A stretch of 61,298 nt of DNA from positions 1 to 61,298 of the forward strand of contig SHXV01000001.1 in assembly GCA_009693105.1 (NCBI GenBank), read 5' to 3'. Source of the DNA: Dehalococcoidia bacterium. Lineage in GTDB: Bacteria > Chloroflexota > Dehalococcoidia > SHXV01. Position 1 is the first letter of the stretch; the number at the start of each line of letters is the position of its first letter. Below the pieces are notes generated by a model, which was not told where the DNA came from, made no database searches, and saw nothing but the letters and a program-made list of their open reading frames with translations. Both the position numbers and the translations under genes were made by a program. Shown in pieces: positions 4,661 through 53,192 of this stretch.

Positions 4661-4667
4661 TGACGGC

Positions 4668-5776: not shown

Positions 5777-6631
5777 ATGATGCCTGATTCCACCATTGCG
5801 ATTACGCAGGCGGTGCTCCGCGCCCTGGAAGGGGGCGAGGCCGTCGCCACCGCCACCGTCATCGCCCGGCCGGAGGGCGCTGCCGGCCCCGACGTGAGCG
5901 CCCGCCTGCTGGTGCGTGCCGAAGGCGAGGGGCTGGGCTCGCTGGGGGGCGGCCCGCTGGAGGACGGCGCCCGCGCCGCGGCGCTGGAGGCGCTGCGCGA
6001 TCGGATCAGCCACACCGTGTGGCTGCACCCGGACGGGACGCCGGCGCAGCGCGCCGATCCGTCCGCCTACCAGGTGCTGATCGAAGCCATCGCCGCGCCG
6101 GAGACCTTGCTGATCGTCGGGGGCGGACATATCGGGCTATCGCTCGCCACCATCGGGGAGCACCTGGGCTTCTCCGTGGCCGTGATCGATGAACGGCCGG
6201 AGTACGCCAGCCCGGAGCGCTTTCCCATGGCCGATCAGGCTATTTGTGGCGAGTTCGATGAGGAAGTGCGCCGCTTTCCCATCGGCGCGGACACGTACGT
6301 GGTCATCGTAACGCGGGGCCACCGCCAGGATGAGACGGCGCTGCGAGAGGCCGTGGGCCGGGGCGCGCGCTATGTGGGCATGATCGGCAGCCGGCGGCGT
6401 GTGGGCGCGGTGCTGCGTCACCTGGTGGCAGACGGAGTCCCCCCTTATGAACTGGAGCGGGTGCACACGCCCATCGGGCTGGACATCGGGGCGGAGACGC
6501 CAGCGGAGATCGCCGTCAGCATCATCGCGGAGATCATCCAACTCCAACGTGGCGGTAGCGGCAGGCCGATGCGGGAGCGTCGGGCCAAGTTGCCGACGGC
6601 GGACGCCGACGCAGTAGCCGACGCTGAATGA
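5777..6631 (+). CDS. XdhC/CoxI family accessory protein (N-terminal XdhC_CoxI domain plus Rossmann-like XdhC_C)
   Basis: 'LLIVGGGHIGLSLATIGEHLGFSVAVIDERPEY' and 'VVIVTRGHRQDETAL..YVGMIGSRRR' match the family. Confidence 0.8.
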   Translation: MMPDSTIAITQAVLRALEGGEAVATATVIARPEGAAGPDVSARLLVRAEGEGLGSLGGGPLEDGARAAALEALRDRISHTVWLHPDGTPAQRADPSAYQVLIEAIAAPETLLIVGGGHIGLSLATIGEHLGFSVAVIDERPEYASPERFPMADQAICGEFDEEVRRFPIGADTYVVIVTRGHRQDETALREAVGRGARYVGMIGSRRRVGAVLRHLVADGVPPYELERVHTPIGLDIGAETPAEIAVSIIAEIIQLQRGGSGRPMRERRAKLPTADADAVADAE

Positions 6632-39862: not shown

Positions 39863-40066
39863 GGCTTCACCATTCCCGCGCGATGATCTCACCGGCGGGC
39901 AGGAAATATTATTATCGGGTTGAGTATAGCCTGCTTCGGCGTGCGCAGGCGAATGAGGGCGGTGTCACACTTGCGCGACGGCACGGGTGCATCGTACGTT
40001 CCGATGCGATGAAGACGATGATGCTTGGCCGCGCTCCGGTGTTGGCGTGATCGCGATGGTGGCGTT

Positions 40067-40729
40067 GTGAGCGCGTCACTGTGGCAGCGCATGACCGCGG
40101 AGTTCATCGGCACGTTCATCATGGTGTTCGCCGGGACGGGCGCCGTCGTCGTCGGCGTAGTCGAGCCGGGGTCGATCTCGCACGAAGGTGTCGCGATCAC
40201 GTTCGGCCTCGTGGTGATGGCCATGATCTACGCGATAGGCCATGTGTCCGGCGCCCATCTCAACCCCGGGGTTACGATCGCCTTTGCCCTGGTGCGCCAC
40301 TTCAACCCCCGCGACGTGTTACCGTACTGGGCGTCCCAGTTCAGCGCGGCGATCCTTGCGTCGCTCACCCTGCGGGCGTTCTTCGGCAACACCGCCCACC
40401 TAGGGGCAACGTTGCCCACGGTATCGCTAGGGGCGGCGTTCGGGCTTGAAGTGTTGCTTACGTTCATCCTGATGTTCGTCATCGTCGCAGTAGCGACCGA
40501 TTCCCGTGCCGTCGGCCAGGCGGCGGCCATCGCCGTTGGCGGAACAGTGGGGCTGGCGGCGTTGTTCGCCGGGCCGCTCTCCGGGGCCTCGATGAACCCG
40601 GCCCGCTCGCTCGGCCCCGCGCTGGTGACGGGCGAACTGCACGCGCTCTGGGTCTACCTGCTCGCCCCTCCCATCGGGGCGTTGCTGGGCGCGCTTACGT
40701 ACCAGCTCATCCGCGGCGGGCAGCGTTGA
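40067..40729 (+). CDS. MIP/aquaporin-family channel (NIP/AqpS-like)
   Basis: 'AEFIGTFIMVFAGTG'. The first box reads 'HLNPGVTIAF' (N-P-G rather than N-P-A). The second box is 'GASMNPARSLGPAL'. The start is uncertain: GTG 40067 or 40025. Confidence 0.88.
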   Translation: MSASLWQRMTAEFIGTFIMVFAGTGAVVVGVVEPGSISHEGVAITFGLVVMAMIYAIGHVSGAHLNPGVTIAFALVRHFNPRDVLPYWASQFSAAILASLTLRAFFGNTAHLGATLPTVSLGAAFGLEVLLTFILMFVIVAVATDSRAVGQAAAIAVGGTVGLAALFAGPLSGASMNPARSLGPALVTGELHALWVYLLAPPIGALLGALTYQLIRGGQR

Positions 40730-41198
40730 GCGCCATCCGGGTGCTCTTTCTCTGCACCGGCAATTCGGCGCGAAGCATCATCGGCGCGGCGCTGCTCAAG
40801 GAGATGGGAGGGGACGATTTCGAGGTGCACAGCGCGGGGACGCACCCGAAAGGGATCACCCCTTCACCGTGCAGGCGCTCGGCCTCGTTCACATCGACAT
40901 CAGCGATGAGCGCTCGAAGTCGTGGCCGAGTACGAGGGCGCAATGTTCGACTACGTGATCACCGTATCGACCAGGCGGCGGAAGAATGCCCGCTGTTTCC
41001 CGGTGCGCCGGAGTGGATTCACTGGGCCTCCCAGATCCCGCCGCCGTTGAGGGCACGGACGTGGAGAAGCTGGCTGCGTTCCAGGGCGCGGTGCAGGACG
41101 TGCGACAGCGGCTGTCCGTGTTCATCCCGGCGGTGCGGAAGGCGCGGCGCGGGCGCGGCAGCGCATTTGACACGCATCATAACGCGCCCGTAAACTAG
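40726..41198 (+). pseudogene. arsC: LMW-PTPase-type arsenate reductase, disrupted by four 1-nt deletions
   Basis: ArsC-like peptide pieces are spread over all three frames. They are 'IRVLFLCTGNSARS..VHSAGTHPKGI', 'HPFTVQALGLVHIDISDERSKSW', 'EYEGAMFDYVITV', 'DQAAEECPLFPGAPEWIHW' and 'LPDPAAVEGTDVEKLAAFQGAVQDVRQRL'. The frame switches fall near 40857, 40926, 40967 and 41026. Confidence 0.8.
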
Positions 41199-41219
41199 CC
41201 TCTACAACTGAATAATGCG

Positions 41220-41368
41220 TACTCTCATCAAGAGCGGTGGAGGGTAAGACGGCCCTGTGAAGCCCGGCAACCGGGCCCTCGTCTTCAGTCGCAACGTACA
41301 GCGACAGGTATGAAGGCGAAGGTCGACTGGTGCCAATTCCGGTCCGCATAGCGGACAAGATGAGAGGC
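41220..41368 (+). ncRNA. SAM-I (S-box) riboswitch aptamer
   Basis: 'CUCUCAUCAAGAGCGGUGGAGGG..GGCCCUGUGAAGCCCGGCAACC..GGUGCCAAUUCC..AAGAUGAGAG' matches the S-box consensus, including P1 pairing of CUCUCAUC with GAUGAGAG. Confidence 0.88.
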
Positions 41369-41406
41369 GTGAACGGACACTATGTCCATTCGACGCCTCT
41401 TTGCTT
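41362..41406 (+). terminator. intrinsic terminator (expression platform of the SAM-I riboswitch)
   Basis: AGAGGCGT..ACGCCTCT stem with an inner GGACA/TGTCC, followed by TTGCTT. The 5' arm overlaps the P1 3' strand. Confidence 0.7.
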
Positions 41407-41476
41407 ATCCGGCAAACAGGCGTTTTCGTTTCCATCCGAATTGTCCGAGGCGCGCCCCTATTCGAAGGGTGAAGAC

Positions 41477-42736
41477 ATGAGCTATATGACAGCGCTGCAC
41501 TGTCGGGAGTGCGGGCGGGAGTACGAACCCGGCCCCCTCCACGTCTGTGAGTTCTGCTTCGGTCCGCTCGAGGTGACGTACGATTACGATGGTATGCGGG
41601 GCAAGGTGACGCGGAAGCGGATCGAATCCGGCCCACCGACGATGTGGCGCTACATCGACCTGCTGCCCATCGCCGGGGACGACCCGATCGAAATGGGCAC
41701 CGGCTTCACGCCGCTCCTCCGCGCGGAGAACCTGGGGCGGGAGCTCGGCCTGGATGAGCTCTACTTGAAGAACGATTGCGTCAATCCCACCTGGTCCTTC
41801 AAGGATCGCGTCGTCGGAGTCGCCGCCACGCGGGCGCGGGAGCTGGGCTTCACCACGCTGGCCTGCGCCTCCACCGGCAACCTGGCCAACAGCGTCTCCG
41901 CCCATGCCGCCAAGGCCGGTATGGACGCCATCGTCTTCATCCCCTCCGACCTGGAGCAGAGCAAGATCCTGGGCTCCGCCATCTACGCGCCCACGCTGGT
42001 GGCGGTGAACGGCTCCTATGACGATGTGAACCGGCTCTGCAGCGAGCTGGCCGGTCGCTACCCCTGGGCGTTTGTGAACATCAACGTGCGTCCCTACTAT
42101 GCGGAGGGCTCCAAGACGCTGGGCTATGAGGTGGCGGAGCAGCTGGGCTGGCAGGCACCCGACCACTGCGTGGTGCCCATGGCCAGCGGCTCCCTGTACA
42201 CGAAGATATGGAAGGGGCTGACGGAGCTGCACCGGTTAGGCCTCATCGATGAGCCGCACACCCGCATGTCCGGCGCGCAGGCGGAGGGCTGCTCCCCCAT
42301 CGCGACGGCGTGGATGGGCGGCACGATGAACATTCGCCCGCAGCGCCCCAACACCATCGCCAAGTCGCTTGCCATCGGCAACCCGGCGGACGGTTACTAC
42401 GCGCTGAAGACGATGCAGGAGACCAACGGCGCCGCCGCTGCTGTCAGCGATGATGAGGTGGTGGAAGGGATGAAGCTGCTGGCCCGCACCGAGGGCATCT
42501 TCGCGGAGACGGCGGGTGGTGTTACCATTGCCGCACTGAAGCGGCTGGTGCAGTCCGGCGTGATCCGGCGGGGGGAACGCACCGTGGTCTTCATCACCGG
42601 CGCGGGGCTGAAGACGCCGGATGCGGTGATGGGCCGGCTGGCCGCATCGCTGGACATTGAAGCAACGGTCGAGTCGTTCGAGGCGGCGAAGCGGGAGGTT
42701 GATGCCCGCGTGAGCGCGGCCCCGGCGACGGCCTGA
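41477..42736 (+). CDS. threonine-synthase-family PLP enzyme with N-terminal zinc ribbon; candidate homocysteine-forming enzyme
   Basis: 'CRECGREY..CEFCFGPLE' is a ribbon and 'NPTWSFKDRVVG' carries the PLP lysine; the rest has a ThrC-like fold. It is preceded by the SAM-I riboswitch and followed by NIL and MoaD-like genes. Confidence 0.85.
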   Translation: MSYMTALHCRECGREYEPGPLHVCEFCFGPLEVTYDYDGMRGKVTRKRIESGPPTMWRYIDLLPIAGDDPIEMGTGFTPLLRAENLGRELGLDELYLKNDCVNPTWSFKDRVVGVAATRARELGFTTLACASTGNLANSVSAHAAKAGMDAIVFIPSDLEQSKILGSAIYAPTLVAVNGSYDDVNRLCSELAGRYPWAFVNINVRPYYAEGSKTLGYEVAEQLGWQAPDHCVVPMASGSLYTKIWKGLTELHRLGLIDEPHTRMSGAQAEGCSPIATAWMGGTMNIRPQRPNTIAKSLAIGNPADGYYALKTMQETNGAAAAVSDDEVVEGMKLLARTEGIFAETAGGVTIAALKRLVQSGVIRRGERTVVFITGAGLKTPDAVMGRLAASLDIEATVESFEAAKREVDARVSAAPATA

Positions 42737-42748
42737 CGAAGGAGCGCA

Positions 42749-42991
42749 ATGGTGCGTAAGCGAGTGCGGTTCACGTTTGAGGGGGACCTGGTCAAGGATC
42801 CGGTCATCTGGCAGATGGGCCGCGACTTTGCGGTGGTGACCAACATCCGGATGGCGGACGTGGAAGAGCGCTACGGCTGGGTGATCCTGGAGGTCGACGG
42901 CGAGCCGGACGAGATCGACCGCGCCATTGCCTGGGCGGAAACCAAAGGTGTGCGTGTCGACCCGATCACGGGCGATGTGGTGGAAGGCTGA
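42749..42991 (+). CDS. NIL-domain protein
   Basis: 80 aa. 'FEGDLVKDPVIWQMGRDFAVVTNIRMADV..GWVILEVDG' resembles the NIL domain found at MetN C-termini. Confidence 0.7.
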   Translation: MVRKRVRFTFEGDLVKDPVIWQMGRDFAVVTNIRMADVEERYGWVILEVDGEPDEIDRAIAWAETKGVRVDPITGDVVEG

Positions 42992-43014
42992 ACATTACTT
43001 GGAGGTGAGTCGCC

Positions 43015-43290
43015 TTGAGCGTCTCCGTGCGTATCCCTACCCCGCTGCGAAAGATGACGAACGAACAGGACGTGGTGAAGTCCACGGGCGATAGCCTGGC
43101 GGCGCTGGTTGAGGCGCTGGAGGGCGAATACCCGGGCTTGAAGGACCGCCTGATGGACGAGAGCGGCGAACTGCGGCGATTCGTCAACGTCTACGTGAAC
43201 GGAGAGGACGTTCGCTTCCTCTCCGGCCTCGCCACCCCCCTCAAGTCCGGCGACGAGGTCAGCATCGTCCCCGCCGTGGCGGGAGGCTGA
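43015..43290 (+). CDS. MoaD/ThiS-family sulfur-carrier protein (C-terminal GG)
   Basis: 91 aa ending '..GDEVSIVPAVAGG'. It is a paralogue of the 51616 ORF and of the N-domain of the 50460 ORF. Confidence 0.88.
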   Translation: MSVSVRIPTPLRKMTNEQDVVKSTGDSLAALVEALEGEYPGLKDRLMDESGELRRFVNVYVNGEDVRFLSGLATPLKSGDEVSIVPAVAGG

Positions 43291-43379
43291 GGCGAAGCGT
43301 ACGCACGTTTAGGAAATGTGTATATATCCCCGGTGGATGGCTGCACTGACGGCGGGTCCGCGAAAGGCGAGAGGGGAAA

Positions 43380-43751
43380 ATGACTAATCCACGATCCATG
43401 CGGTACTCCATGGATGAAGTGTTGTCCGGGATACTGGCGACCTTTGAACGAGACACGTCCACGGATTACACCCAAAGGCTGGGTGAAGCGTTCAAGGGCT
43501 TATCCCAGCAGGCGCCGCTGTTTGCCCCGTTCGGCGCGATCGCCGAAGAGGGGGATTTCTCCGCGATTGTGGAGAAGGCGCTGGGCAGCCTCGTCGTTAC
43601 GGGACAGTTGAAGCGCAAAGCGGCCCACTATGAGCTGACGGCGGCCGGGCGTGCTCGCTGCGTTAGCAGCAAGCGTACCCTGTTGAACGCCAGCGATCTG
43701 AAGGACCTCGAGGCAGGCGCTCGCTACTTCGAGGAGCACTGCTCCGCCTGA
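43380..43751 (+). CDS. hypothetical protein (123 aa), first gene of the AT-richer islet
   Basis: A GAGAGGGGA RBS precedes the ATG. No family recognised. The C-terminal half could be winged-helix-like ('LVVTGQLKRKAAHYELTAAG'). Confidence 0.5.
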   Translation: MTNPRSMRYSMDEVLSGILATFERDTSTDYTQRLGEAFKGLSQQAPLFAPFGAIAEEGDFSAIVEKALGSLVVTGQLKRKAAHYELTAAGRARCVSSKRTLLNASDLKDLEAGARYFEEHCSA

Positions 43752-43821
43752 GCCACGCGTCATTCAGCCATATCTGAGCCCCCGCCCAAGCTCACGACAG
43801 GTTATCGCTCGCTGTGGGGTG

Positions 43822-44247
43822 TTAATGGTTCGGCCCAAGACCAATTCCAGACCGGACCCTGAACATCTCGTTCCGACCTTCTTCCAGCACGGCGAGCTCG
43901 TTGATGGCGATGGTCACCGGGAGGGACGGCGCCAGGTCCGAGCGGACCGCGCTTTCGATCTGTACTAAACGGTCTTCAGGAGACTCGGCGATTGTGAGAT
44001 GTGGGATCGTGTCGGGATAGCGGCCGCCGTACCGTGGATGTTCGGGAAATGTCGCGAAGAGTTTGGCCATCAACGCGGCGGTTTCTCCGTTATCCCCCGG
44101 TTGAGATAGAGCACGCCCGGGAAGCGCCCAAAATCGCCAAGCGTTATCCTGAATTGCTCGATGCCCTCCGCCAAGCAGCGGCGCGGCGCCAGAGTGCCTG
44201 AGTCGCTCTGACTGGAAGGCGCACGACGTAGGCAACGAGCACACCAC
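43822..44247 (-). pseudogene. C-terminal half of a 2H-phosphoesterase (LigT/2'-5' RNA ligase superfamily) gene
   Basis: '..FATFPEHPRYGGRYPDTIPHLTIAES..VTIAINELAVLEE' contains only the second H-x-T-x motif. The N-terminal ~45 codons of the ORF look unrelated. Confidence 0.6.
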
Positions 44248-44530
44248 CCGCCCCGAGTGCCAAAGCCGCTGGACTAGCCCGAGCTACGCGGGCAGCAAGG
44301 AACAGAAGCATGAATTCGGGGTCGCGGACGACACTGCCCCCCGACCACTGCGGGGAGTGAATGCCCCCCATTACTTCAACATCGACCCAGCTCAAACCCT
44401 CCCCGAATACCCCGAATGGAACGTGCTCGAAACCCAGGATCAGGTGCATCCCGAGATCGATAGCCATGAACGTGAGGGACAGCAGGGCGAGGATGCCGGC
44501 GGTGCGGGCGGTGGCCCCGAACGTCTTCAT
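44144..44530 (-). CDS. possible small membrane protein (128 aa), doubtful
   Basis: 'MKTFGATARTAGILALLSLTFMAIDLGMHLILGF..' is hydrophobic. The ORF overlaps the 2H fragment, and its 5' end is one copy of an 18-bp repeat. Confidence 0.25.
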   Translation of the reverse strand: MKTFGATARTAGILALLSLTFMAIDLGMHLILGFEHVPFGVFGEGLSWVDVEVMGGIHSPQWSGGSVVRDPEFMLLFLAARVARASPAALALGAGGVLVAYVVRLPVRATQALWRRAAAWRRASSNSG

Positions 44531-44778
44531 GCGCCGCACTCTAGCACCGCCGCGCGCAAGCCGTGGGTGTCGCCGTGACCGCCGCAGTAACGGTCGGCGT
44601 CGCGGCATCCGACATCACTTGCGTTGGCGAGGAGCTCTCTGCAGGTGACGACGAGACCGGAGGGTTCGCACCGCCGCCGCCGAGCGACGAGCCCGGACAG
44701 GAGAGTAGAATCCGCGGCGACGGATCAGCGCGACGTTGTTCCCATAGAGTGGTGACGTCCTTCCACGAGGTCACAACC

Positions 44779-44820
44779 GGCGGCCGAGGAGTCTAATTCC
44801 TCGGCCGCCACTTTATTTTC
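44779..44820 (+). terminator. strong stem-loop with T-tract (orphan intrinsic terminator)
   Basis: GGCGGCCGAGGA (44779-44790), 7-nt loop, TCCTCGGCCGCC (44798-44809), then ACTTTATTTTC. No convincing upstream plus-strand gene. Confidence 0.55.
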
Positions 44821-44884
44821 AATCTCCTCGGCGTGGGGGCAGTGATACCGCGCTGGCGGTTCGATCTCTGTGCAGGGGTTATGC

Positions 44885-45010
44885 CAGAACTCAGGGCTCG
44901 ACCCCGATTTCCGCCGTGAACGCTATGGGGAACCGCTCCACTTCGAATCTGAGCACAGGTGCGGGGAAGGCCGGATCGAACGCCTTTCGGACCCCGAGCC
45001 CTGAGTTCTG
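44885..45010. repeat. 16-bp perfect inverted repeat pair flanking 94 nt (MITE-like or long hairpin)
   Basis: CAGAACTCAGGGCTCG (44885-44900) and CGAGCCCTGAGTTCTG (44995-45010), ending 12 nt from the stop of the 45023 gene. Confidence 0.7.
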
Positions 45011-45022
45011 ACAGAACCCGTG

Positions 45023-46246
45023 CTAGAGGTAGGCGACGTACCGGTCGACTTCGAGTGTGAGGTTACCTGCTTCAGCAAATCCGAAGGGGTCCTGAACGCG
45101 GCGAATTTGTGCCGATTTGTTGAAAACCCCGTTCACGAGATACAGCCAGTACTGCGATCTGTGTCGTCCTGCCGCCCGCCACTCATTTGCGGTCAAGAAG
45201 TACGCGCTCTTGGTGCTGAGACTGGACTTTACTTCGATGTAGCGTTCGGTCTCGTCGTCGTTGAACGACAAGATGTCATAGCCCGGGAATTCTTCACCCG
45301 GTTCAAACCGCTCAGTTCTTGGGTGCCCGCAATCGCAGCCGACTGCACATGCGACATGAACGATTTGCGCTACCAGCGAAGTCTTGCCAGCCTCACTCAG
45401 TCGTTTCTTCTCCGCCTCGATGACTAGAAGTTCCCCGATTCTTCCAATGCGAGCGTGCTCCGCTCGTGGTTGGCTGGCCTTGTCGCGTCGCTCGCGTATG
45501 GGCCGTGGTGTGTTGACTCGGGCCGACGGTGTGAATTCAACCGCGACAATCTGCTGGTCAGCAGGTGCCGAAGCAGCACCTTCGATGATGTCATCGAGCT
45601 TCGGCATCGCAGGGTTATTGATCATCTTGAGGTAGAGCGTGACAAATCGCCGGAGGTCTGCCGTCAAAGCCGCTTCAGATGGCAGATTCGAAATCGAGTA
45701 GGCGATCGAAGCGATCGAACTTAGTTCGTAGCGCGCGTGAATTGATCCGCGCGGTGCATTGAGTTCGAGACGGTCTGTCGCCAGTCCCTCGAGTGCTGCT
45801 GCACCCATTCGTCCACGGTAGTCAGAAACCGCTTTGGTAAGTTCCCTCTGGAACTTTGGTTCAGGAAAGGCGTCATGAAACTTCGTGACACCCAGTGCGA
45901 GGGACAAATAGACCCACTCCATACCGATCGAGAACAGATAGGCGATGTAAGGCCCATCTTGAGCACTCGGTGCGACCACAGGGTCGTAGATGCGTACCCA
46001 CGGAGCCCGCGTTTGGTAGCCTGCTCCGACCGATCCTTCTGTGTTCAGGCGTTGCTGGGGGGCTAAGAGGTCCTTCAGTCGAGTAGGTGTGACGCGCTCG
46101 ACGAGGTCGTAGACCTCGCTCTTCTTGTCGACTGTTCTTTGGGATGCATCCCACGTCACCGCAATACCCAAGAAGAGTTCGGAGAGGGTCAGCGGGCTGT
46201 CGTTCGTCATCGATACATCCGCTTGCCGGCGGTGTTGCTGGAGCAC
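45023..46246 (-). CDS. McrB-N-like (DUF3578) DNA-reader domain fused to a DUF3883 PD-(D/E)xK-like nuclease domain; candidate type IV restriction enzyme
   Basis: N-terminal 'EGSVGAGYQTRAPWVRIYDP..SAQDGPYIAYLFS..VYLSLALGVT' closely follows the DUF3578/MrcB_N pattern (GSxGxG..PW..I.D..SAQ.G.Y.VYLF..YLSLNQG). C-terminal 'GRIGELLVIEAEKKRL..GYDILSF..RYIEVKSS..FLTANEWRAA..YWLYLV' follows the DUF3883 pattern. AT-richer than the surroundings. An alternative start is ATG 46210. Confidence 0.75.
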   Translation of the reverse strand: MLQQHRRQADVSMTNDSPLTLSELFLGIAVTWDASQRTVDKKSEVYDLVERVTPTRLKDLLAPQQRLNTEGSVGAGYQTRAPWVRIYDPVVAPSAQDGPYIAYLFSIGMEWVYLSLALGVTKFHDAFPEPKFQRELTKAVSDYRGRMGAAALEGLATDRLELNAPRGSIHARYELSSIASIAYSISNLPSEAALTADLRRFVTLYLKMINNPAMPKLDDIIEGAASAPADQQIVAVEFTPSARVNTPRPIRERRDKASQPRAEHARIGRIGELLVIEAEKKRLSEAGKTSLVAQIVHVACAVGCDCGHPRTERFEPGEEFPGYDILSFNDDETERYIEVKSSLSTKSAYFLTANEWRAAGRHRSQYWLYLVNGVFNKSAQIRRVQDPFGFAEAGNLTLEVDRYVAYL

Positions 46247-46304
46247 CCAACAGCGAGCACGAGCATCACGATGGCAGCGAGGATGGGGAGGCGGCGGCGC
46301 AGGT

Positions 46305-46511
46305 TCATGCCCCGCACTCTACAGTAAGCGCCGCCGTGAGTTCGGCGATGTCCACGTCCGACAACGGTGCAGGTCGCCAGGGATAGAGCAGCGTGATGTG
46401 CGCCGGCACGCTCCTGCGAGCTGATGGGTCGTATCGCGCGGGCCACTTCGAAACGAGACGGTCGATCTCCGGCGCCAGGATGACCAGCGCGCTTTCGCCT
46501 GGTTGGCTCAT
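46305..46511 (-). pseudogene. N-terminal half of a 2H-phosphoesterase gene
   Basis: 'SALVILAPEIDRLV..VPAHITLLYPWRP..DIAELTAAL' carries only the first H-x-T-x motif. It ends abruptly after 68 codons. Confidence 0.6.
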
Positions 46512-46622
46512 AGTTGTCCCCCAGCGCATTGATGATACCCCATCGGGCGTTGCGCCATCCCCGGGTCTTGTGCCATAATCCTGACTTAATCGCTCGATTT
46601 ACTCTCTTTTAGTGGAGGCCCC

Positions 46623-47804
46623 ATGTTCGCATCCAACCTCATCGCGCCGCACGGCGGCACGCTCGTCGATCGCCTCGCCCCGGAGGCGCAGCGTGCGTCG
46701 CTGCTCGCCGCCGCGGAAGCGCTGCCGCCCGTCGCCGTCGGCCCCCGCGTCCTCGCCGATCTCGAGCTGATCGCCGTCGGCGCCTACAGCCCGCTGGACG
46801 GCTTCATGACCAACGCCGACTACAAGGGCGTCGTGGAGAACATGCGCCTGGCCAACGGCACGGCCTGGTCACTGCCGGTCACCCTTCCCGCGACGAAAGC
46901 GGAGGCAGACGCCCTGCGGGAGGGCCAGCCCTTCGCCCTGCGCGATGAGCAGGGCCGCGTCGTCGCCACCGTCACCCTGACGGAGCGCTACAGCTACGAC
47001 AAGAAGAACGAAGCGGAGAAGGTCTACCGCACCGCGGACGAAGCCCACCCCGGCGTCGCCGCCATGTACGCCCAGGGCGATGTCCTCCTCGCCGGGCCGA
47101 TCACCCTTCTGCGTAAGGCGGAGCGTGGCCCTGCCGTCGTCGATCACTGGCTGGAGCCGGCGCAGAGCCGCGCCGCGTTCGCGGAGCGGGGCTGGCGCAC
47201 CATCGTCGGCTTCCAGACGCGCAACCCGGTCCACCGTGCCCACGAGTACATCCAGAAGTGCGCCCTCGAGATCGTCGATGGCCTGTTCCTCCACCCGCTC
47301 GTCGGCGAGACGAAGGGCGATGACATCCCTGCCGATGTCCGCATGCGCTGCTACACCGTGCTCCTGGACAACTACTACCCGAAGGACCGCACGCTGCTGG
47401 GGGTGCTCCCCGCCGCCATGCGCTACGCCGGGCCGCGGGAGGCCATTTTCCACGCGCTGGTGCGCAAGAACTACGGCTGCTCCCACTTCATCGTCGGACG
47501 GGACCACGCCGGCGTGGGCAACTATTACGGAACCTATGACGCCCAGCTCATCTTCAACGAGTTCAAGCCGGAGGATCTGGGCATCCGGCCCCTCATGTTT
47601 GATCACAGCTTCTACTGCAAGAAGTGCGAAGGCATGGCCAGCGCCAAGACCTGCCCCCACGGCGCGGAGGACCGCGTCACGCTCTCCGGCACCCAGGTCC
47701 GCGACATGCTCGCCGCGGGCACGATACCGCCCGTTGAGTTCAGCCGACCGGAAGTGGCGAAGGTACTGATCGAGGCGCAGCGCGCGGCAAGGGCCGCCGG
47801 ATAA
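46623..47804 (+). CDS. sat: sulfate adenylyltransferase (ATP sulfurylase)
   Basis: '[16 protein letters not shown]' and '[12 protein letters not shown]', with PUA-like N-terminal and catalytic domains. Confidence 0.95.
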
Positions 47805-48925
47805 TGGATGGCCCGGCGCCGCTGGAGCAGGGTGGGATCGCCCCGGGAGCGGCCGTTCGTCCGCTTCGCCTCCGGCTGGCGCTGGGCGGGGCGGTGCTGC
47901 GCCGCACGGCGATGGCGCTGGGCGCGCTCTGGCTGTTCGTCATCGCTGTGCGCACGCTGAGCAGCGGGGCGAAAGGGATCGAGCCGCTGCTCGATCTGCT
48001 CTCCGTCAACAATCCCGTCAACGCCCTGGGGTTCGCCTGGCTGGGGGCCTACGGCGTGCTTAGCGGCTCCCCCATCGCCGCCATCGCGGTCACCCTGTTC
48101 GATGGCGGGCTTATCTCGCGCATCGAGGCGTTCGCCATGCTGAACGGCTCCCGATTTGGGGCGTCGTTCATCGTGCTCGTCGTCGGGTTTATGTCTTACA
48201 TCCGGAATCGAAGGGGGCCGGATGGCGTGTACATCGGGGTGATCGCTCTGCTCACCGCCTTCGCGATGAACCTGCCGGTGCTCTTCCTGGGCGTCGCCCT
48301 TCTCCGCTCCGGCCTGCTCGATGGCGCGCGCTTCGACCTGCCGGGGCTGACTTCGCTGGTGGAGGTCATCGCCGATCCCGCTGTCCACCGCATCACCGAT
48401 GCGTTTTCGCCCACCCTCGTGTTCGTGGCCGGTGTGGCGCTGGTGCTGCTCACCTTCCAGCTGTTCGATCGCGCCCTCCCCCAGCTGGAGGCGGCCGATC
48501 AGCGCTTCGAACGGTTGGTGGCGTTCCTGCACCGGCGTTGGGCGATGTTCGCTGTCGGGCTGCTCATGACCTCGATGACGATGTCCGTTTCTATCTCCCT
48601 GACGGTGCTGGTGCCGCTATCGCTCAAAGGCTACATCCGGCGGGACGGCATCGTGCCCTACGTCATGGGAGCGAACATCTCTACCTGGATCGATACGCTT
48701 ATCGCCACGCTGCTGCTGGGCAATCCGGACGCGTTCGTCATCGTCCTGGCGGAGATGGTGAGCGGGTTCACCGTGGCGCTGGTGGTGCTCTCCCTGTGGT
48801 ATCGGCCGTTTGAAGGCGCGATCCTCTGCCTCACCCACTGGATCGTCGCCAGCCGGCGCAGCCTGGCCGTGTTCCTGGGGGCCATCTTCATGATGCCACT
48901 CGTGCTCCTGTTCGCCGTGCCCTAG
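47804..48925 (+). CDS. Na/Pi-cotransporter-family (PF02690-like) membrane protein, possible sulfate or thiosulfate importer
   Basis: Two internal repeats end in 'MLNGSRFGASF' and 'VMGANISTWIDT' (compare GANIGTT). The protein is polytopic. The start overlaps the sat stop (TAATG). Confidence 0.65.
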   Translation: MDGPAPLEQGGIAPGAAVRPLRLRLALGGAVLRRTAMALGALWLFVIAVRTLSSGAKGIEPLLDLLSVNNPVNALGFAWLGAYGVLSGSPIAAIAVTLFDGGLISRIEAFAMLNGSRFGASFIVLVVGFMSYIRNRRGPDGVYIGVIALLTAFAMNLPVLFLGVALLRSGLLDGARFDLPGLTSLVEVIADPAVHRITDAFSPTLVFVAGVALVLLTFQLFDRALPQLEAADQRFERLVAFLHRRWAMFAVGLLMTSMTMSVSISLTVLVPLSLKGYIRRDGIVPYVMGANISTWIDTLIATLLLGNPDAFVIVLAEMVSGFTVALVVLSLWYRPFEGAILCLTHWIVASRRSLAVFLGAIFMMPLVLLFAVP

Positions 48926-49003
48926 CGGTGGCTCCCGTTTTTCGCTCGTGCTAAGATTGTTGATAGAACCACTCGACTTTATGAATCGTCGAAGAGGCCA
49001 GGA

Positions 49004-49438
49004 ATGAAAGTATCGACCAAGGTGGACTACGGCGTTCGCGCCCTCATCGAGCTGTCCCAACACTACGGCGAAGGGCCGATGCAGAGCAGCGAGATCGCGG
49101 CGCGGCAGCACATTCCGGAGCAGTACCTGGACCAGCTGCTGACCACGCTGCGGCGCGCGGGCTTTATCCGCAGTGTGCGCGGCCCCCAGGGCGGTCACGC
49201 CCTGGTCCGGCCGGCGGAGGAACTGCCGGTGAGCGAGGTAGTCCTGGCGTTGGAAGGGTCGCTCGACCCCATCGCCTGCCTGGAAGAAGGGTCCGCCTGC
49301 ACCAAGGGGGGTGGATGCGCCCAGCGCGGCATGTGGGAAGACGTGCGAACGGCCATCCTGGGGGTGCTGGGAGCCACGACCATCGCGGACTTGCGGGAGC
49401 GCAGCCGAAGCTCACTTGTTGGGCACTACCGGATCTAG
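49004..49438 (+). CDS. Rrf2-family transcriptional regulator (CymR/IscR-like)
   Basis: 'MKVSTKVDYGVRALIEL..IPEQYLDQLLTTLRRAGFIRSVRGPQGG'. Confidence 0.9.
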   Translation: MKVSTKVDYGVRALIELSQHYGEGPMQSSEIAARQHIPEQYLDQLLTTLRRAGFIRSVRGPQGGHALVRPAEELPVSEVVLALEGSLDPIACLEEGSACTKGGGCAQRGMWEDVRTAILGVLGATTIADLRERSRSSLVGHYRI

Positions 49439-49448
49439 GGGGACTCTC

Positions 49449-50390
49449 GTGTCAGACGCCGCTACCCGTTCCCTGAGACCGCTCATCGCCGATAACGCGC
49501 TGGACCTGATCGGCCGCACCCCCATGGTCCGGCTGCGCCGGATCGTGCCCGCCGGCGGCGCGGATCTGCTGGCCAAGATGGAGATGATGAACCCGGCTGG
49601 GTCCGTCAAGGATCGCATCGCCCTGGCGATGATCGAGGAGGCGGAGCGTGCCGGTAAGCTACGGCCCGGCGACACCATCGTGGAGCCGACCAGCGGTAAC
49701 ACCGGCATCGGCCTGGCCATGGTCGCCGCGGTGAAGGGCTACAAGCTCATCCTCACCATGCCGGAAGACATGAGCGTGGAGCGGCGCAAGCTGCTGGCCC
49801 GTTACGGCGTTCAGTTTGTGCTCACGCCCGCCATCGAAGGGATGAGCGGCGCTGTTTACGCCGCGCAGGAAATCCTGGAGAAGACGCCGAACTGCTTCAT
49901 GCCGCAGCAGTTTGAGAATCCCGCCAACCCGCAGGTCCATCGCCTTACCACGGCCGTGGAGATACTGGACGCGACGGAGGGACGGGTTGATGCGTTTGTC
50001 GCCGGGGTCGGCACCGGCGGCACGATCAGCGGCGTCGGGCGCGTCCTGAAGGACCGCATCCCCGATGTTCTCATCGTCGCCGTGGAGCCGACGCGATCGC
50101 CGGTGTTGCAGGGCGGCCGCGCCGGGATGCACGCCATCCAGGGCATCGGCGCCAGCTTCGTCCCCGGCGTGTTCGACCGCGCCGTGGTGGACGAGATCAT
50201 GGGTGTGTCCGATGAAGATTCGATCGAGATGATGCAGCGGCTGGCCCGGGAGGAGGGGCTGCTCGTCGGCGTATCCTCCGGCGCCAACGTCTTCGCCGCC
50301 CTGAAGGTGGCGGCACGGCTTGGCGCCGGGAAGCGCGTGGTGACGATCCTGCCCGATACGGGCGAACGCTATCTGAGTCTGCCGGGCTGA
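49449..50390 (+). CDS. cysK: cysteine synthase A (O-acetylserine sulfhydrylase)
   Basis: 'LIGRTPMVRL', 'EMMNPAGSVKDRIA' and 'EPTSGNTGIGLA..GVGTGGTISG'. GTG start at 49449 after an AGGGGGA RBS. Confidence 0.9.
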   Translation: MSDAATRSLRPLIADNALDLIGRTPMVRLRRIVPAGGADLLAKMEMMNPAGSVKDRIALAMIEEAERAGKLRPGDTIVEPTSGNTGIGLAMVAAVKGYKLILTMPEDMSVERRKLLARYGVQFVLTPAIEGMSGAVYAAQEILEKTPNCFMPQQFENPANPQVHRLTTAVEILDATEGRVDAFVAGVGTGGTISGVGRVLKDRIPDVLIVAVEPTRSPVLQGGRAGMHAIQGIGASFVPGVFDRAVVDEIMGVSDEDSIEMMQRLAREEGLLVGVSSGANVFAALKVAARLGAGKRVVTILPDTGERYLSLPG

Positions 50391-50459
50391 CGCTGGTCTT
50401 CTCGGCGGAATTTGGCATAATACGTGGGTAATGGTGTCCTAGCCGTTCGGAGGCGAACG

Positions 50460-51596
50460 ATGACGATCGTCAGGGTGTATGTTCCCGCACCCTTCCGGAC
50501 GCTCACAGGAAACCGCGGTACAGTGGAGGCGCAAGGCGCTGACATCGAGGAGCTGTTGCGCGATCTTGATACGCGCTACCCTGGTTTCCGCGCGCTTGTC
50601 TGTAACGATCGGGATGAGATTCCGGCGCACATCAACATCTATGTGAACAATCGCGAGATTCACTCGCTGGAGGGCACCATGACAAAGCTCAGCGAAGGGG
50701 ACGAAGTGGCCGTCATTCCCGCTATCGCTGGCGGCGCGGACGGAAACGGCTCCGCCGGGCCCCAGGTGTGGACGCCGGACCAGGTGATCCGCTATTCGCG
50801 ACACATCATCATGCCGCAGGTGGGCAGCGCCGGGCAGCGCAAGCTGCTTCACGCAAAGGTGCTGCTCATCGGCGCGGGCGGGCTCGGCTCACCGGCGGCG
50901 CTGTACCTGGCGGCCGCGGGCGTGGGCACGATCGGGCTGGTCGATTTCGATGTTGTCGACCTGAGTAACCTGCAGCGGCAGCTCCTGCACCACACCAGCG
51001 ATGTGGGCCGGCCCAAAGTTGAATCGGCCCGCGACACAATCGCGGCGTACAACCCCGATATCAAGGTGATCCCCCACCAGGAGCCGCTGACGTCTGACAA
51101 CGTATTCGGCCTGTTCAAGCAGTACGACTACATCCTGAACGGGGTGGATAACTTCCCCGCCCGCTACTTGGCGAACGATGCGGCCTACATGCTGGGCAAG
51201 ACTTTGGTGGATGGCAGCATCTTCCTCTTTGAGGGGCAGGCTTCCGTCTACGAGCCGGGCAAGGGCTGCTACCGCTGCCTGTTTCCCGCGCCGCCGCCGC
51301 CGGGCATGGTGCCGTCCTGCGCTGAAGCGGGCGTGCTGGGCGTCCTGCCCGGCATCATCGGCTCCGTCATGGCGATTGAGGTGATCAAACTGATCCTGGG
51401 CGTGGGCGAGCCTCTTATCGGCCGTCTGCTCCTGTTCGATGCGCTTGCGATGGAGTTCCGGCAGGTGAAGACGCGGCGGGATCCGAAGTGCCCACTCTGT
51501 GGCGAGAACCCCACCGTTACGGAACTGATTGACTATGATGAATTCTGCGGATTCCCCTCTGACGCCGTCGCGACCGCGGCGGGGAGGACGGCGTGA
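50460..51596 (+). CDS. fusion protein: N-terminal MoaD/ThiS-like ubiquitin-fold domain (internal ..AIAGG) plus ThiF/MoeB-type E1 adenylyltransferase
   Basis: Residues 1-~92 end in 'GDEVAVIPAIAGG'. A linker is followed by 'YSRHIIMPQVGSAGQRKL..VLLIGAGGLGSPAALYLAAAGVG..DLSNLQRQ', with CxxC pairs 'CYRC' and 'CPLC'. No rhodanese domain is present. Confidence 0.85.
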   Translation: MTIVRVYVPAPFRTLTGNRGTVEAQGADIEELLRDLDTRYPGFRALVCNDRDEIPAHINIYVNNREIHSLEGTMTKLSEGDEVAVIPAIAGGADGNGSAGPQVWTPDQVIRYSRHIIMPQVGSAGQRKLLHAKVLLIGAGGLGSPAALYLAAAGVGTIGLVDFDVVDLSNLQRQLLHHTSDVGRPKVESARDTIAAYNPDIKVIPHQEPLTSDNVFGLFKQYDYILNGVDNFPARYLANDAAYMLGKTLVDGSIFLFEGQASVYEPGKGCYRCLFPAPPPPGMVPSCAEAGVLGVLPGIIGSVMAIEVIKLILGVGEPLIGRLLLFDALAMEFRQVKTRRDPKCPLCGENPTVTELIDYDEFCGFPSDAVATAAGRTA

Positions 51597-51615
51597 CCGC
51601 GGGGGAGGATAATCG

Positions 51616-51888
51616 ATGGCGGTAGAGGTACGGGTCACCTCCGTTCTGCAGCGGATCACGGGCGGCCGGCGCTCCGTGAAGGCGAACGGCGACACCGTGG
51701 GGGAGATGCTCGACGACCTGGAGGGGGCGTACCCCGGCCTGAAGGCGCAGGTAACCGATGACGGCGCTTTGCGGCGGTTCGTCAACATCTACGTGAACGA
51801 CGAGGACATCCGTTACCTGGACGCGCTTGCCACACCGCTGAAGGATGGTGACGTCGTCTCCATCCTTCCGGCGCTGGCTGGCGGCTAG
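51616..51888 (+). CDS. cysO: MoaD/ThiS-family sulfur-carrier protein (CysO-like)
   Basis: 90 aa ending 'GDVVSILPALAGG'. It sits immediately upstream of a CysM-type cysteine synthase. Confidence 0.85.
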   Translation: MAVEVRVTSVLQRITGGRRSVKANGDTVGEMLDDLEGAYPGLKAQVTDDGALRRFVNIYVNDEDIRYLDALATPLKDGDVVSILPALAGG

Positions 51889-51909
51889 CGCGGACGCGGG
51901 ATATTCGCC

Positions 51910-52854
51910 GTGCGCTACGCCAGCATTCTTGACCTCATCGGCAACACCCCGCTCGTGGAGATCCCGCGGCTCAGCCCCAATCCCAACGTGCACCTCTACG
52001 CCAAGCTAGAGGGGCAGAACCCCACGGGCAGCGTGAAGGATCGCATCGCCCTGCTCATGATCGAGCGGGCGGAGCGGGACGGCTTGCTCGTCCCCGGGTC
52101 CGCGAGGGTGCTGCTGGAGCCGACCAGCGGCAATACCGGCATCGGCCTGGCGATGATCGGGCGGCGCAAGGGCTACCGCGTGCGCGTCGTCATGCCGGAC
52201 TCCGTGAGCGAGGAGCGTACGCAACTGCTGCGGGCATACGGCGCGGAGATCGTGTACTCCGCGGGTTCGCGCGGCACCAACGGTTCCATCGCCCTGGCGC
52301 AGGAGATCGTGGCGGCGGAGCCGGACAAGTACGTCATGCTCTACCAGTACGGCAACCAGGCGAATCCGGACGCGCACTACACCACCACCGGGCCGGAGAT
52401 CCTGCGGGACCTGCCGGAGATCGATGTGTTCGTCGCCGGGCTGGGCACGGGCGGCACGCTCACGGGGGTGGGGCGCTACCTGAAGGAGCACAAGCCGGGG
52501 GTGCGCATCGTCGCGGCGGCGCCGCACCCCGGCGATCTCGTGCAGGGGCTGCGCAGCATGGAGGAGGGGTTCATCCCCCCCGTGTTCGATGAGCGGGTGC
52601 TGGATGGACGGATTGTGGTGGACAGCCGCTCCTCCTTCGCCGCCACCAAGGAGCTGACCCAGAAGGAGGGAATCTTCGCCGGCATCTCCAGCGGGGCGGT
52701 CATCCGAACGGCGCAGAGGGTGGCGGAGCGGATGGAGTCCGGCCACATCGTCTGCCTGCTGGCCGATGGCGGCTGGAAGTACCTCTCCACCGACCTGTGG
52801 ACGAAGGACTACGACGGTCTGGCGGAGGAAGTTGAGACCAAGATCTGGTGGTGA
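51910..52854 (+). CDS. cysM: cysteine synthase B-type (CysM-like; likely uses CysO thiocarboxylate)
   Basis: 'LIGNTPLVEI', 'LEGQNPTGSVKDRIA' and 'EPTSGNTGIGLA..GLGTGGTLTG'. Synteny is with cysO and an E1. Confidence 0.85.
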   Translation: MRYASILDLIGNTPLVEIPRLSPNPNVHLYAKLEGQNPTGSVKDRIALLMIERAERDGLLVPGSARVLLEPTSGNTGIGLAMIGRRKGYRVRVVMPDSVSEERTQLLRAYGAEIVYSAGSRGTNGSIALAQEIVAAEPDKYVMLYQYGNQANPDAHYTTTGPEILRDLPEIDVFVAGLGTGGTLTGVGRYLKEHKPGVRIVAAAPHPGDLVQGLRSMEEGFIPPVFDERVLDGRIVVDSRSSFAATKELTQKEGIFAGISSGAVIRTAQRVAERMESGHIVCLLADGGWKYLSTDLWTKDYDGLAEEVETKIWW

Positions 52855-52857
52855 GCC

Positions 52858-53192
52858 TTGCCCTGTAACGAAGCGCTGGCCGATCGCTTACGCCGGTCCT
52901 TGGCGGGGATGGCGGGCACTGATGAACGGAAGATGTTCGGCGCCTCTGCTTTATGCTCCGCGGCAACATGATCTTCGGCGTGGCGAACGAAGACCTGATG
53001 GTGCGCGTGGGGCCGGATGGGCACGATGCGGCGCCGGCTCAACCCGGCGCCCGGCCGATGGACTTCACCGGCAGAGCTATGCGCGGCTTCATCTACGTCG
53101 GGCCTGGAGGGTACGAGACGGATGAAGCGCTGGCGGGCTGGGTGGCGCGGTCACTAGAGTTCGTGAGCACACTCCCGCCGAAGGGGAAGTAA
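52858..53192 (+). pseudogene. TfoX-N-domain family gene with one frameshift
   Basis: '(M)PCNEALADRLRRSL..ERKMFGA' (TTG 52858) continues in another frame as 'CFMLRGNMIFGVANEDLMVRV..GFIYV'. A 1-nt deletion lies near 52940. Confidence 0.55.

Follow-up and report, generated by a model that had tools for sequence, protein, structure and literature searches.

What becomes of the modified-cytosine reader of McrB when neither the GTPase motor nor the partner nuclease is there? This question is raised by a gene in the complete 61,298-bp contig of a Dehalococcoidia metagenome-assembled genome (referred to as the window), where an open frame of 407 amino acids (aa), opening with GTG, occupies positions 45023..46246 on the minus strand. 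A preliminary description, made from the DNA letters alone, had read this frame as an N-terminal DUF3578/MrcB_N domain fused to a C-terminal DUF3883 nuclease and had proposed a modification-dependent restriction enzyme. We found that the protein carries an McrB-like reader domain and a predicted PD-(D/E)xK nuclease domain in a single chain and that its gene was acquired by horizontal transfer. Based on homology, it is probably a stand-alone modification-dependent defense nuclease, a reading to which we assign a probability of about 0.68.

Domain Architecture of the Protein

The open frame lies exactly where the preliminary description had placed it, and all motifs quoted there occur in its translation (EGSVGAG, APWVRIYDP, SAQDGPYIAYLFS, VYLSLALG, GELLVIEAEKKRL, GYDILSF, YIEVKSS, ANEWRAA, and YWLYLV). 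The identical protein in NCBI (P0001), named "DUF3578 domain-containing protein," has 395 residues. Because both this call and the homologs in our alignment begin at M13, the ATG at 46210 was taken as the gene start, which is the probable true start judging from the sequence. Residue numbers refer to the 407-aa frame throughout. The open reading frame (ORF) is intact, with all invariant residues of the family (see below) present.

Pfam searches detected two domains and nothing else in the protein. MrcB_N (PF12102) matched at aa 32–208 with an E-value of 9.2e-35 (120.4 bits vs. a cut-off of 25), spanning model positions 6–181 of 183, and NOV_C/DUF3883 (PF13020) matched at aa 317–382 with an E-value of 4.5e-17 (62.3 bits vs. 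a cut-off of 22.1). Both scores exceed the curated cut-offs and are far beyond chance, which bears out the two domain assignments of the preliminary description. Its remark that the usual AAA+ motor is missing also held: neither an AAA/GTPase domain nor the features of the McrB AAA+ GTPase (Walker A/B, NxxD; AAA_5) were matched in Pfam or NCBIfam, no NCBIfam model matched the protein at all, and the order is simply reader, linker, nuclease. The AlphaFold2 model of the whole protein had a predicted local distance difference test (pLDDT) score of 80.8, with values below 50 in the linker at aa 245–262.

The Reader Domain

When the single window sequence was searched against the PDB, only noise was returned, and McrB-N was reached only with a family profile. 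Using a profile of nine two-domain homologs, the best PDB match was the N-terminal domain of EcoKMcrB (E-value = 0.022), in an alignment that passes through SFGYGNFTSIPW/GIYPVILYY. A profile built from 82 family members (mean identity 29%) and compared with residues 1–164 of Escherichia coli K-12 McrB gave an hhalign probability of 95.5–96% and E-values of 1.6e-8 to 3e-9, and the alignment extends to 148 columns. Foldseek analysis of the whole-protein model, which the preliminary description had suggested together with the domain searches, returned McrB-N–DNA complexes (3SSE, 3SSD, 8IK4, and others) as best matches, with a probability of 0.98, a TM-score of 0.55 on the target and an E-value of 0.016. 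As the E-values of the fold searches are weak, the significance of the homology rests on hhalign and Pfam.

In the structure of McrB-N, Ser38 and Trp49 serve as clamps on the phosphates of the nucleotide that is flipped out, and van der Waals contacts of Tyr64 and Leu68 discriminate 5-methylcytosine (5mC) from cytosine; these four residues are conserved in McrB-N homologs, whereas the intercalating Tyr41 is not (PMC3424535). Mapping of the window protein onto EcoK McrB gave S72=S38, A75=Y41, W83=W49, A95=A59, Y100=Y64, and L104=L68. Among the 82 members, S72 and W83 are each conserved in 78, Y100 in 77, and L104 in 80. Thus, by this alignment, the conserved finger and pocket residues of EcoK McrB-N are retained in the window protein.

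The position of Tyr41 behaves differently. Residue 75 is Gln in 29 of the 82 members, Ala in 9, Lys in 9, Arg in 6, and Asp in 5; Gln is the reported replacement for Tyr41 in McrB homologs, and the Y41A change reduces binding of methylated DNA by EcoK McrB-N (PMC3424535). That Y77 or another finger residue takes over the role of Tyr41 is speculation. Two highly conserved tyrosines, Y173 (81/82) and Y183 (82/82), are candidate counterparts of the base-stacking Tyr117 of EcoK McrB, in a region where the greedy hhalign alignment has low confidence.

The Nuclease Domain

Strictly invariant positions in the 82-member alignment are P82, Y183, D197, G268, E272, G322, D324, E338, K340, and E355. Five of them (E272, D324, E338, K340, and E355) lie in the C-terminal domain, and E272...D324...E338-x-K340 reads as a canonical PD-(D/E)xK set, the D...E-x-K arrangement that the preliminary description had pointed out. 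DUF3883 was placed in the PD-(D/E)xK superfamily by Steczkiewicz et al. (PMC3424549). A model of the domain by itself (pLDDT 84.9) showed the secondary structure order H-E-E-H-E-E, and the alpha-beta-beta-beta-alpha-beta core of restriction endonuclease-like proteins is present in the predicted structure. Nearly all Foldseek matches of this domain were PD-(D/E)xK nucleases, including Hjc (probability 0.94), the SPARDA nuclease, HincII, Hje, RecU, and Cas4, with E-values of only ~0.03.

Outside the family, the nearest relatives of the nuclease domain are DUF3427-DUF3883 proteins (P0010–P0012; E-values ~1e-7, among them 1.7e-7). They carry every invariant nuclease residue, and the domains align column for column.

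In the nuclease core, a lineage-specific insertion, CAVGCDCGH, follows the N-terminal helix and precedes the first strand. This C-x3-C-x-C-x-H motif occurs only in the window protein and its closest homolog P0002 (as CNAACNCGH), and other members do not have it. The motif, modeled with low pLDDT, may form a small knuckle that binds metal.

Comparison with Known Systems

In EcoKMcrBC, McrB consists of the DUF3578/ADAM reader and an AAA+ GTPase, and McrC of DUF2357 and a PD-DxK nuclease. The reader of the window protein is homologous to that of McrB, with the equivalents of the phosphate-clamp (S38, W49) and methyl-contact (Y64, L68) residues kept. However, the window protein lacks a GTPase motor, an McrC partner, and translocation, Tyr41 is replaced by Ala, and its nuclease is fused in cis and belongs to another PD-(D/E)xK family. 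Since neither GTPase nor McrC is present, the protein is not an McrBC system.

The overall design is found again among enzymes studied by Lutz et al. (2019), who showed that catalysis resides in DUF3883 both in YenY4I (PUA-DUF3427-DUF3883) and in the McaZI group (DUF3427-DUF3883) (PMC6765204). In Dcm+ E. coli cells, the DUF3427-DUF3883 enzymes McaZI, EfaL9I, and BwiMMI are toxic or growth-impairing, with toxicity in the case of McaZI and EfaL9I; all three bind DNA that contains 5mC or 5-hydroxymethylcytosine (5hmC), attenuate T4gt, and protected E. coli when expressed alone (PMC6765204). Cleavage in vitro by the McaZI group is weak and favors Mn2+ (PMC6765204). Like McaZI, BwiMMI, EfaL9I, and YenY4I, the window protein is a single chain with an N-terminal reader of modified cytosine (assigned by homology), a C-terminal DUF3883 nuclease and no nucleoside triphosphatase (NTPase). 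McaZI-group genes are also often stand-alone or located in defense islands, and the invariant nuclease residues are identical. The difference lies in the reader, which is MrcB_N (PF12102) in the window protein and the SauUSI-type DUF3427 (PF11907), a different Pfam family, in the McaZI group. PF11907 gave no Pfam match in the window protein and was found only in the more distant P0010–P0012. The window protein is therefore not a member of the McaZI group. Because its nearest outside relatives are DUF3427-DUF3883 proteins that share every invariant residue, it is, by sequence comparison, a reader-swapped version of an enzyme kind that has already been tested.

HmaA, a single-gene defense system of Halomonas, combines a Snf2 helicase with NOV_C (PMC11232893). 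Both proteins have a NOV_C/DUF3883 nuclease with a D...ExK...E set, and both resemble Hjc structurally; D324, E338, K340, and E355 correspond to D1084, E1104, K1106, and E1121 of HmaA, with a spacing of 15 from Lys to Glu in both. The isolated NOV_C domain of HmaA is a Mn2+-dependent nickase, and a quadruple mutant of these residues abolishes defense (PMC11232893). Unlike the window protein, HmaA is targeted by its Snf2 ATPase rather than by a modified-base reader, and its phenotype is abortive-infection-like.

The MspJI/AspBHI family joins an SRA-like reader to an Mrr-like PD-QxK nuclease. By analogy, the window protein may follow the same NTP-independent two-domain layout, in which a base-flipping 5mC reader is fused to a nuclease of PD-(D/E)xK type (PMC12707154). 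However, both of its domains come from other families, and tetrameric assembly and a fixed cutting distance are features of MspJI.

In a search of defense-system models with PADLOC, as the preliminary description had proposed, aa ~232–404 matched Tiamat TmtA, PD-T4-1, and PDC-S36 (E-values 1.6e-19 to 5e-14), and the C-terminal third also matched a type II restriction endonuclease model. No profile was matched over its full length: the TmtA profile (TmtA profiles are ~1,100–1,800 positions long) was matched at positions 1370–1531 of 1538 and PDC-S36 at 134–248 of 280. Only the nuclease module is shared with these systems, whose N-terminal parts differ and none of which has MrcB_N. The match to defense models thus concerns the nuclease region and not a complete known system.

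In the literature searched, we found no mention of DUF3578 together with DUF3883. The McrBC-focused literature, including PMC12707154, describes DUF3578/ADAM as a reader fused to the McrB GTPase, and in one preprint ADAM/DUF3578 figures in a list of readers recruiting HNH nucleases. The earlier suggestion that this architecture has no characterized member holds as far as the MrcB_N-DUF3883 combination in the literature searched is concerned; the design itself has been tested with a different reader (McaZI, BwiMMI, EfaL9I, and YenY4I), and the architecture is common (see below), both of which reduce its novelty. Swapping of reader domains among modification-dependent nucleases is already established and is not a new principle.

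Proposed Function and Alternative Explanations

Based on the structures of McrB-N and the experiments on HmaA and McaZI, we propose the following mechanism. The McrB-N/ADAM domain would scan duplex DNA via the minor groove and flip a pyrimidine into its pocket, where a base with a small modification of cytosine (5mC, 5hmC, or N4-methylcytosine [4mC] class) would be held. The tethered DUF3883 domain might then nick or cut adjacent DNA in a divalent-metal-dependent reaction, probably preferring Mn2+/Mg2+. The enzyme probably works as a dimer or oligomer, and double-strand cleavage would require dimerization or two close sites. Modified DNA of incoming phages or plasmids would be damaged, and the host would be spared because its own DNA would lack the cognate modification. 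The gene itself came by horizontal transfer on a 2.16-kb islet whose insertion killed a 2'-5' RNA ligase-family gene.

By homology, the protein has the features of a type IV enzyme, namely a putative modified-base recognition domain and a putative endonuclease domain, both with key residues intact. No cognate methyltransferase was found in the insert or the 61-kb contig, and the methyltransferase and restriction-modification models of PADLOC matched none of the other 56 ORFs of the contig. As no tested family member was found, modification dependence is proposed from homology to the reader and nuclease relatives described above.

Several observations weigh against this proposal. No experimentally characterized member of the family was found in the literature searched. 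The E-values of the fold searches are weak (0.016–0.027 at best), as is that of the PDB profile match (0.022). The intercalating Tyr41 of EcoK McrB is replaced by Ala (A75), and the equivalent of the base-stacking Tyr117 was not placed, with the hhalign alignment being of low confidence there. Characterized relatives with DUF3883 show poor in vitro cleavage and may depend on helpers (PMC6765204), and NOV_C of HmaA only nicks supercoiled DNA, HmaA itself acting in an abortive-infection-like manner (PMC11232893). A scan for sigma-70-like promoters found none. Finally, the host genome is covered by 61 kb only, which bears on the methylation status of the host.

If the proposal is true, the methylcytosine reader of McrB could work without a GTP-driven motor or McrC when merely tethered to a nuclease, and the family would define a compact (~45 kDa), NTP-independent group of type IV enzymes. 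Such enzymes could be new small tools for mapping 5mC, 5hmC, or 4mC.

The most serious alternative, which we nevertheless regard as unlikely, is a defense nuclease of the same architecture whose reader is not specific for the 5mC class and responds to another flipped or hypermodified base, to DNA shape or to sequence; given a suitable trigger, such a variant might act on DNA that bears no modification. Readers of the McrB family differ in what they recognize, and the variable Tyr41 position has been suggested to tune sequence preference (PMC3424535); the corresponding position 75, Ala in the window protein, varies across the 82 members. In addition, the hydrogen-bonding contacts in the EcoK McrB pocket are mediated by the backbone and involve residues that are not conserved (PMC3424535), and the second half of the reader domain aligns with low confidence. 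On the other hand, conservation of the reader within the family is highest at the residues contacting the 5-methyl group (Y64 and L68) and at the phosphate clamps.

It is distinctly improbable, in our view, that the protein is instead a toxic effector of abortive infection (Abi), that is, a nickase which, on sensing modified phage DNA, would damage any DNA, the host chromosome included, and halt the infected cell. This reading is suggested by HmaA, which uses the same NOV_C domain, is Abi-like in phenotype and does no more than nick supercoiled DNA (PMC11232893), by the McaZI-type enzymes, which protect in vivo despite poor cleavage in vitro (PMC6765204), and by the closest homolog P0002 (55% identity), which adjoins TIR and Abi_C genes. 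However, the window protein has no sensor or regulatory domain besides its DNA reader, and its reader–nuclease layout fits the direct-acting modification-dependent restriction enzymes McaZI and MspJI.

Distribution and Genomic Context of the Family

We examined how widely the two-domain family occurs and what surrounds its genes. Our first impression, from a word-indexed search that found nine two-domain proteins, was that the architecture is very rare; this was corrected by an exhaustive profile search, which detected 726 representatives of 50%-identity clusters at an E-value of 1e-30 or below. The top 150 cluster representatives (E-value < 1e-59) are mostly full-length matches of ~360–420 aa. 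A pattern scan of genome contigs with a tighter alignment recovered four loci only and is of no use for abundance, and a scan of viral contigs revealed no relatives. Family members are named only "hypothetical" or "DUF3578 domain-containing." Their sources include Nitrospinaceae, Nitrospiraceae, Prochlorococcus, and Tara Oceans samples. Both domains were confirmed in members on the Staphylococcus aureus conjugative plasmid pRM27, on a Loigolactobacillus backii plasmid (near type I restriction-modification fragments, with hsdS and a short restriction endonuclease gene, and near a MazF toxin–antitoxin pair) and on a Vibrio phage-like element flanked by serine recombinases. Limosilactobacillus and Lysinibacillus plasmids gave near-full-length tblastn matches annotated as DUF3578 proteins.

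A Listeria member of 432 aa was also detected by tblastn (24.9% identity to the window protein; MrcB_N + NOV_C). It is flanked by genes for a GH1 glycosidase and a beta-eliminating lyase, and its neighbor genes presumably fit the lmo0301–lmo0305 hotspot. The record in which it was found (OR846725.1, "UNVERIFIED_ORG: Listeria phage"; L042, positions 3809–5107) has chromosomal-looking surrounding genes (GH1 glycosidase, beta-eliminating lyase/aldolase) and is probably host chromosome rather than phage. In a Listeria study, 540 of 872 strains were reported to carry a one-gene type IV system termed "mcrB-like," an assignment based solely on HHpred, BLASTp, and REBASE. We infer that the family member is probably this gene, already labeled "type IV mcrB-like" in silico, and that the family is probably also the commonest gene of the Listeria immigration control region. 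The architecture is real and widespread and has probably already been labeled type IV informally.

The family has more than 150 clusters at 50% identity, distributed over marine and environmental bacteria, Staphylococcus and Lactobacillaceae plasmids and a Vibrio mobile element. If its members are modification-dependent nucleases, they would influence plasmid transfer and the host range of phages in clinical and industrial bacteria, and how readily strains can be transformed could depend on them as well.

All-versus-all comparison of the flanking ORFs of 25 loci, many with short flanks, revealed no neighbor family in more than two loci, and no second recognizable gene was detected in the insert by Pfam or homolog searches. 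No McrC (DUF2357 + PD-DxK) partner was found in the insert, in the contig, or beside the homologs. Therefore the gene is stand-alone, in agreement with the earlier impression that no partner gene is present, and it moves with mobile and defense DNA; for example, P0005 lies on an element with a resolvase and an excisionase. In most loci the family gene is GC-poorer than its flanks.

A dependence on an unlinked or variably linked NTPase or helicase (DUF2075/SLFN-type), with the Dehalococcoidia copy as an orphaned and nonfunctional passenger, is more doubtful than the two alternatives discussed above. P0006 is located directly upstream of genes for a MazG-like protein and an SLFN-g3/DUF2075 helicase, an association noted for McaZI too, and a reverse transcriptase gene is also near; a MazG-like neighbor occurs in a second locus, and the in vitro activity of relatives is weak. 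Nevertheless, no helper was found in the insert or the 61-kb contig, no neighbor is conserved across the 25 loci, McaZI, BwiMMI, and EfaL9I protect E. coli alone, and the window ORF is intact with every invariant residue in place.

The two loci with a MazG-like gene next to the family gene are unrelated (L001, 9144–11356; L030, 1049–1417). In L001 the MazG-like gene is followed by the SLFN-g3/DUF2075 helicase gene, the same NTPase association that Lutz et al. noted for McaZI. These genes may form an optional accessory module.

Some relatives differ in architecture. P0145 (939 aa) is an McrB with duplicated reader, in which two MrcB_N domains in tandem precede an AAA_5 motor, and P0009, P0030, P0031, P0035, P0037, P0081, and P0093 have extra N- or C-terminal extensions of ~80–125 aa.

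Insertion into a 2'-5' RNA Ligase-Family Gene

The preliminary description had placed the gene in an AT-richer islet next to broken genes. The islet was confirmed: GC content is 0.56–0.58 across ~44750–46250 versus ~0.61–0.70 in the windows around it. GC content at third codon positions (GC3) of the gene is 0.62, the lowest among the 57 ORFs of the contig; the next-lowest value (0.69) belongs to another ORF in the same insert, and the remaining ORFs range from 0.71 to 0.92.

Breakage was also real, although it concerns one gene rather than several. The flanking ORF fragments at 46305..46529(-) and 43822..44247(-) match the N- and C-terminal parts of a single 2'-5' RNA ligase (2H phosphoesterase) profile, and a third piece (…FRITLGDFGRFPGVLYL…) is found at ~44103–44166. 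The protein rebuilt from the three pieces has 69% and 65% identity to intact proteins of 186 and 177 aa, respectively, over 99% of its own length. Contigs with an intact 2H gene share the gene order of the window (PALP-NIL-ThiS-orf124-[2H]-Sat-Na/Pi transporter-Rrf2), with 2H uninterrupted. Thus, the "broken genes" are one 2H gene split by the insertion that carries the reader–nuclease gene.

The bounds of the islet were defined by blastn of three syntenic empty-site loci (L012, L013, and L014) against the window and by tblastn of the intact P0195. Alignment of the empty site with window 47000→46326 (87.5% identity) runs to locus position 6186 and resumes at locus 6187–6189 with window 44168/44166→43312. 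The insertion is clean, with no loss of target sequence, and the 2H remnant has since gained a frameshift; the host gene is decaying. Together with the three empty-site loci, the lowest GC3 of the contig and the GC-poor character of the family gene relative to its flanks in most loci indicate that the gene was acquired horizontally. The locus is a very clear case of a putative defense gene as a fresh insertion, with the exact empty site preserved in sister genomes.

Two other origins were considered and rejected. An assembly chimera does not agree with the flanks, which, at a distance of 2,160 bp, carry on one syntenic host gene in the same reading frame, and the insert is neither a repeat nor a translocated piece of the host, having no match elsewhere in the contig or the loci. 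At the outer junctions only weak and unconvincing similarity to a target-site duplication or terminal inverted repeats was seen, and no integrase or transposase was found in the insert.

A selfish homing-like nuclease cassette, in which the nuclease aids insertion of the islet and serves mainly its own spread rather than defense, is very improbable: it would fit the clean insertion without recombinase, the single nuclease gene, the 18-nt repeat bracketing a 1,778-bp module and the foreign composition of the gene in most loci, but insertion sites and neighbors differ from locus to locus with no common target or repeat, the reader is homologous to a modification sensor and not to a recognition module for long homing sites, and two loci carry separate recombinases able to mobilize the gene in trans. 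A related idea on the 1.78-kb repeat-bounded module (nuclease gene, 3' hairpins, no recombinase), namely that it is a minimal self-propagating restriction cassette whose insertion is driven by the reader–nuclease or by host break repair, deserves little credence; if true, this would be a mobile type IV gene of homing-like character and not one that is passively carried along.

Other Features of the Islet and the Contig

The coordinates of all features are listed in table 1.

Table 1. Positions of the reader–nuclease gene, its domains, and other features of the window
Feature	Position	Strand	Remarks
Inserted islet, 2,159 bp	44167..46325		Defined vs. empty-site genomes; between codons 62 and 63 of the 2H gene
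N-terminal piece of disrupted 2'-5' RNA ligase-family gene	46326..46511	-	aa 1–62 of intact homolog; 79% identity to P0195
C-terminal two-thirds of disrupted 2H gene	43828..44166	-	Extra frameshift near 44100
Reader–nuclease coding sequence	45023..46210	-	395 aa from ATG 46210 (M13); open frame reaches GTG 46246; coordinates verified
MrcB_N/DUF3578/"ADAM" modified-cytosine reader domain, assigned by homology	45623..46153	-	aa 32–208; Pfam, hhalign, Foldseek
Finger loop and base-pocket segment S72...L104	45935..46033	-	Residue mapping to EcoK McrB
Inter-domain linker	45461..45622	-	aa 209–262; variable in length and sequence; columns poorly conserved in homolog alignment
NOV_C/DUF3883 PD-(D/E)xK nuclease domain, predicted	45026..45460	-	aa 263–407; Pfam, conservation, fold
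Lineage-specific insertion CAVGCDCGH (C-x3-C-x-C-x-H)	45323..45349	-	aa 300–308
Putative catalytic codons	E272 45431-45433; D324 45275-45277; E338 45233-45235; K340 45227-45229; E355 45182-45184	-	
Small upstream ORF, MNLRRRLPILAAIVMLVLAVGCSSNTAGKRMYR then stop	46207..46308	-	ATG in repeat copy 1; TGA overlaps main-gene ATG
Direct repeat copy 1 (TTCATGCCCCGCACTCTA)	46304..46321	+	A few bases inside upstream islet end
Direct repeat copy 2 (TTCATGCGCCGCACTCTA)	44526..44543	+	With copy 1 brackets 1,778-bp low-GC module holding the gene
Long imperfect hairpin	44872..45023	-	29-nt arms, 90% complementary; begins at stop codon
GC-rich hairpin	44779..44809		12 perfect pairs (14 by terminator scan); A/T-rich tract flanking; terminator-like
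GC-rich insert remainder, about 360 bp	44167..44525		No recognizable gene

The 18-nt direct repeat has the sequence TTCATGC[G/C]CCGCACTCTA; 0.09 chance matches are expected, and two matches occurred in none of 100 shuffles. A stop and a start codon overlap in both copies (…GCATGAA…), which also hold the ATG of a short hydrophobic ORF, and the core AGAGTGC recurs inverted near 44185. As a shared att site, the 18-mer is absent from the other family loci.

The region 44765–45030, which contains both hairpins, has a fold z-score of -4.47, and no Rfam family was matched by these 3' hairpins. The long hairpin is probably the 3' structure of the transcript. For the GC-rich hairpin, the T-run is on the plus strand, as for a convergent transcript; no credible plus-strand gene was found.

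The small ORF upstream of the reader–nuclease gene (MNLRRRLPILAAIVMLVLAVGCSS…, 33 codons) resembles a lipoprotein signal peptide cut short, overlaps the start of the main gene in ATGA, and had no Pfam match. It may be a truncated donor gene that now provides translational coupling or a promoter.

A partner gene hidden in the GC-rich remainder of the insert was considered and rejected: no Pfam match and, among 5.8 billion proteins, no homolog was found for the ORFs of either strand. The coding or codon-position signal of this region is ambiguous.

PADLOC analysis of the other 56 ORFs of the contig yielded only E1-E2 models, all matching one protein that is probably a sulfur-carrier-activating ThiF-type enzyme, and one ORF matching the "mad2" model (E-value = 1e-12). 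The islet lies inside a conserved sulfur-related cluster (window ~40000–53000), which is syntenic in L012–L014 from related Dehalococcoidia-like genomes and contains genes for ATP sulfurylase, a Na/Pi-cotransporter-like protein, Rrf2, PALP enzymes, ThiS/MoaD-like carriers, and ThiF; one of the PALP enzymes has a match to a NinF-like zinc ribbon.

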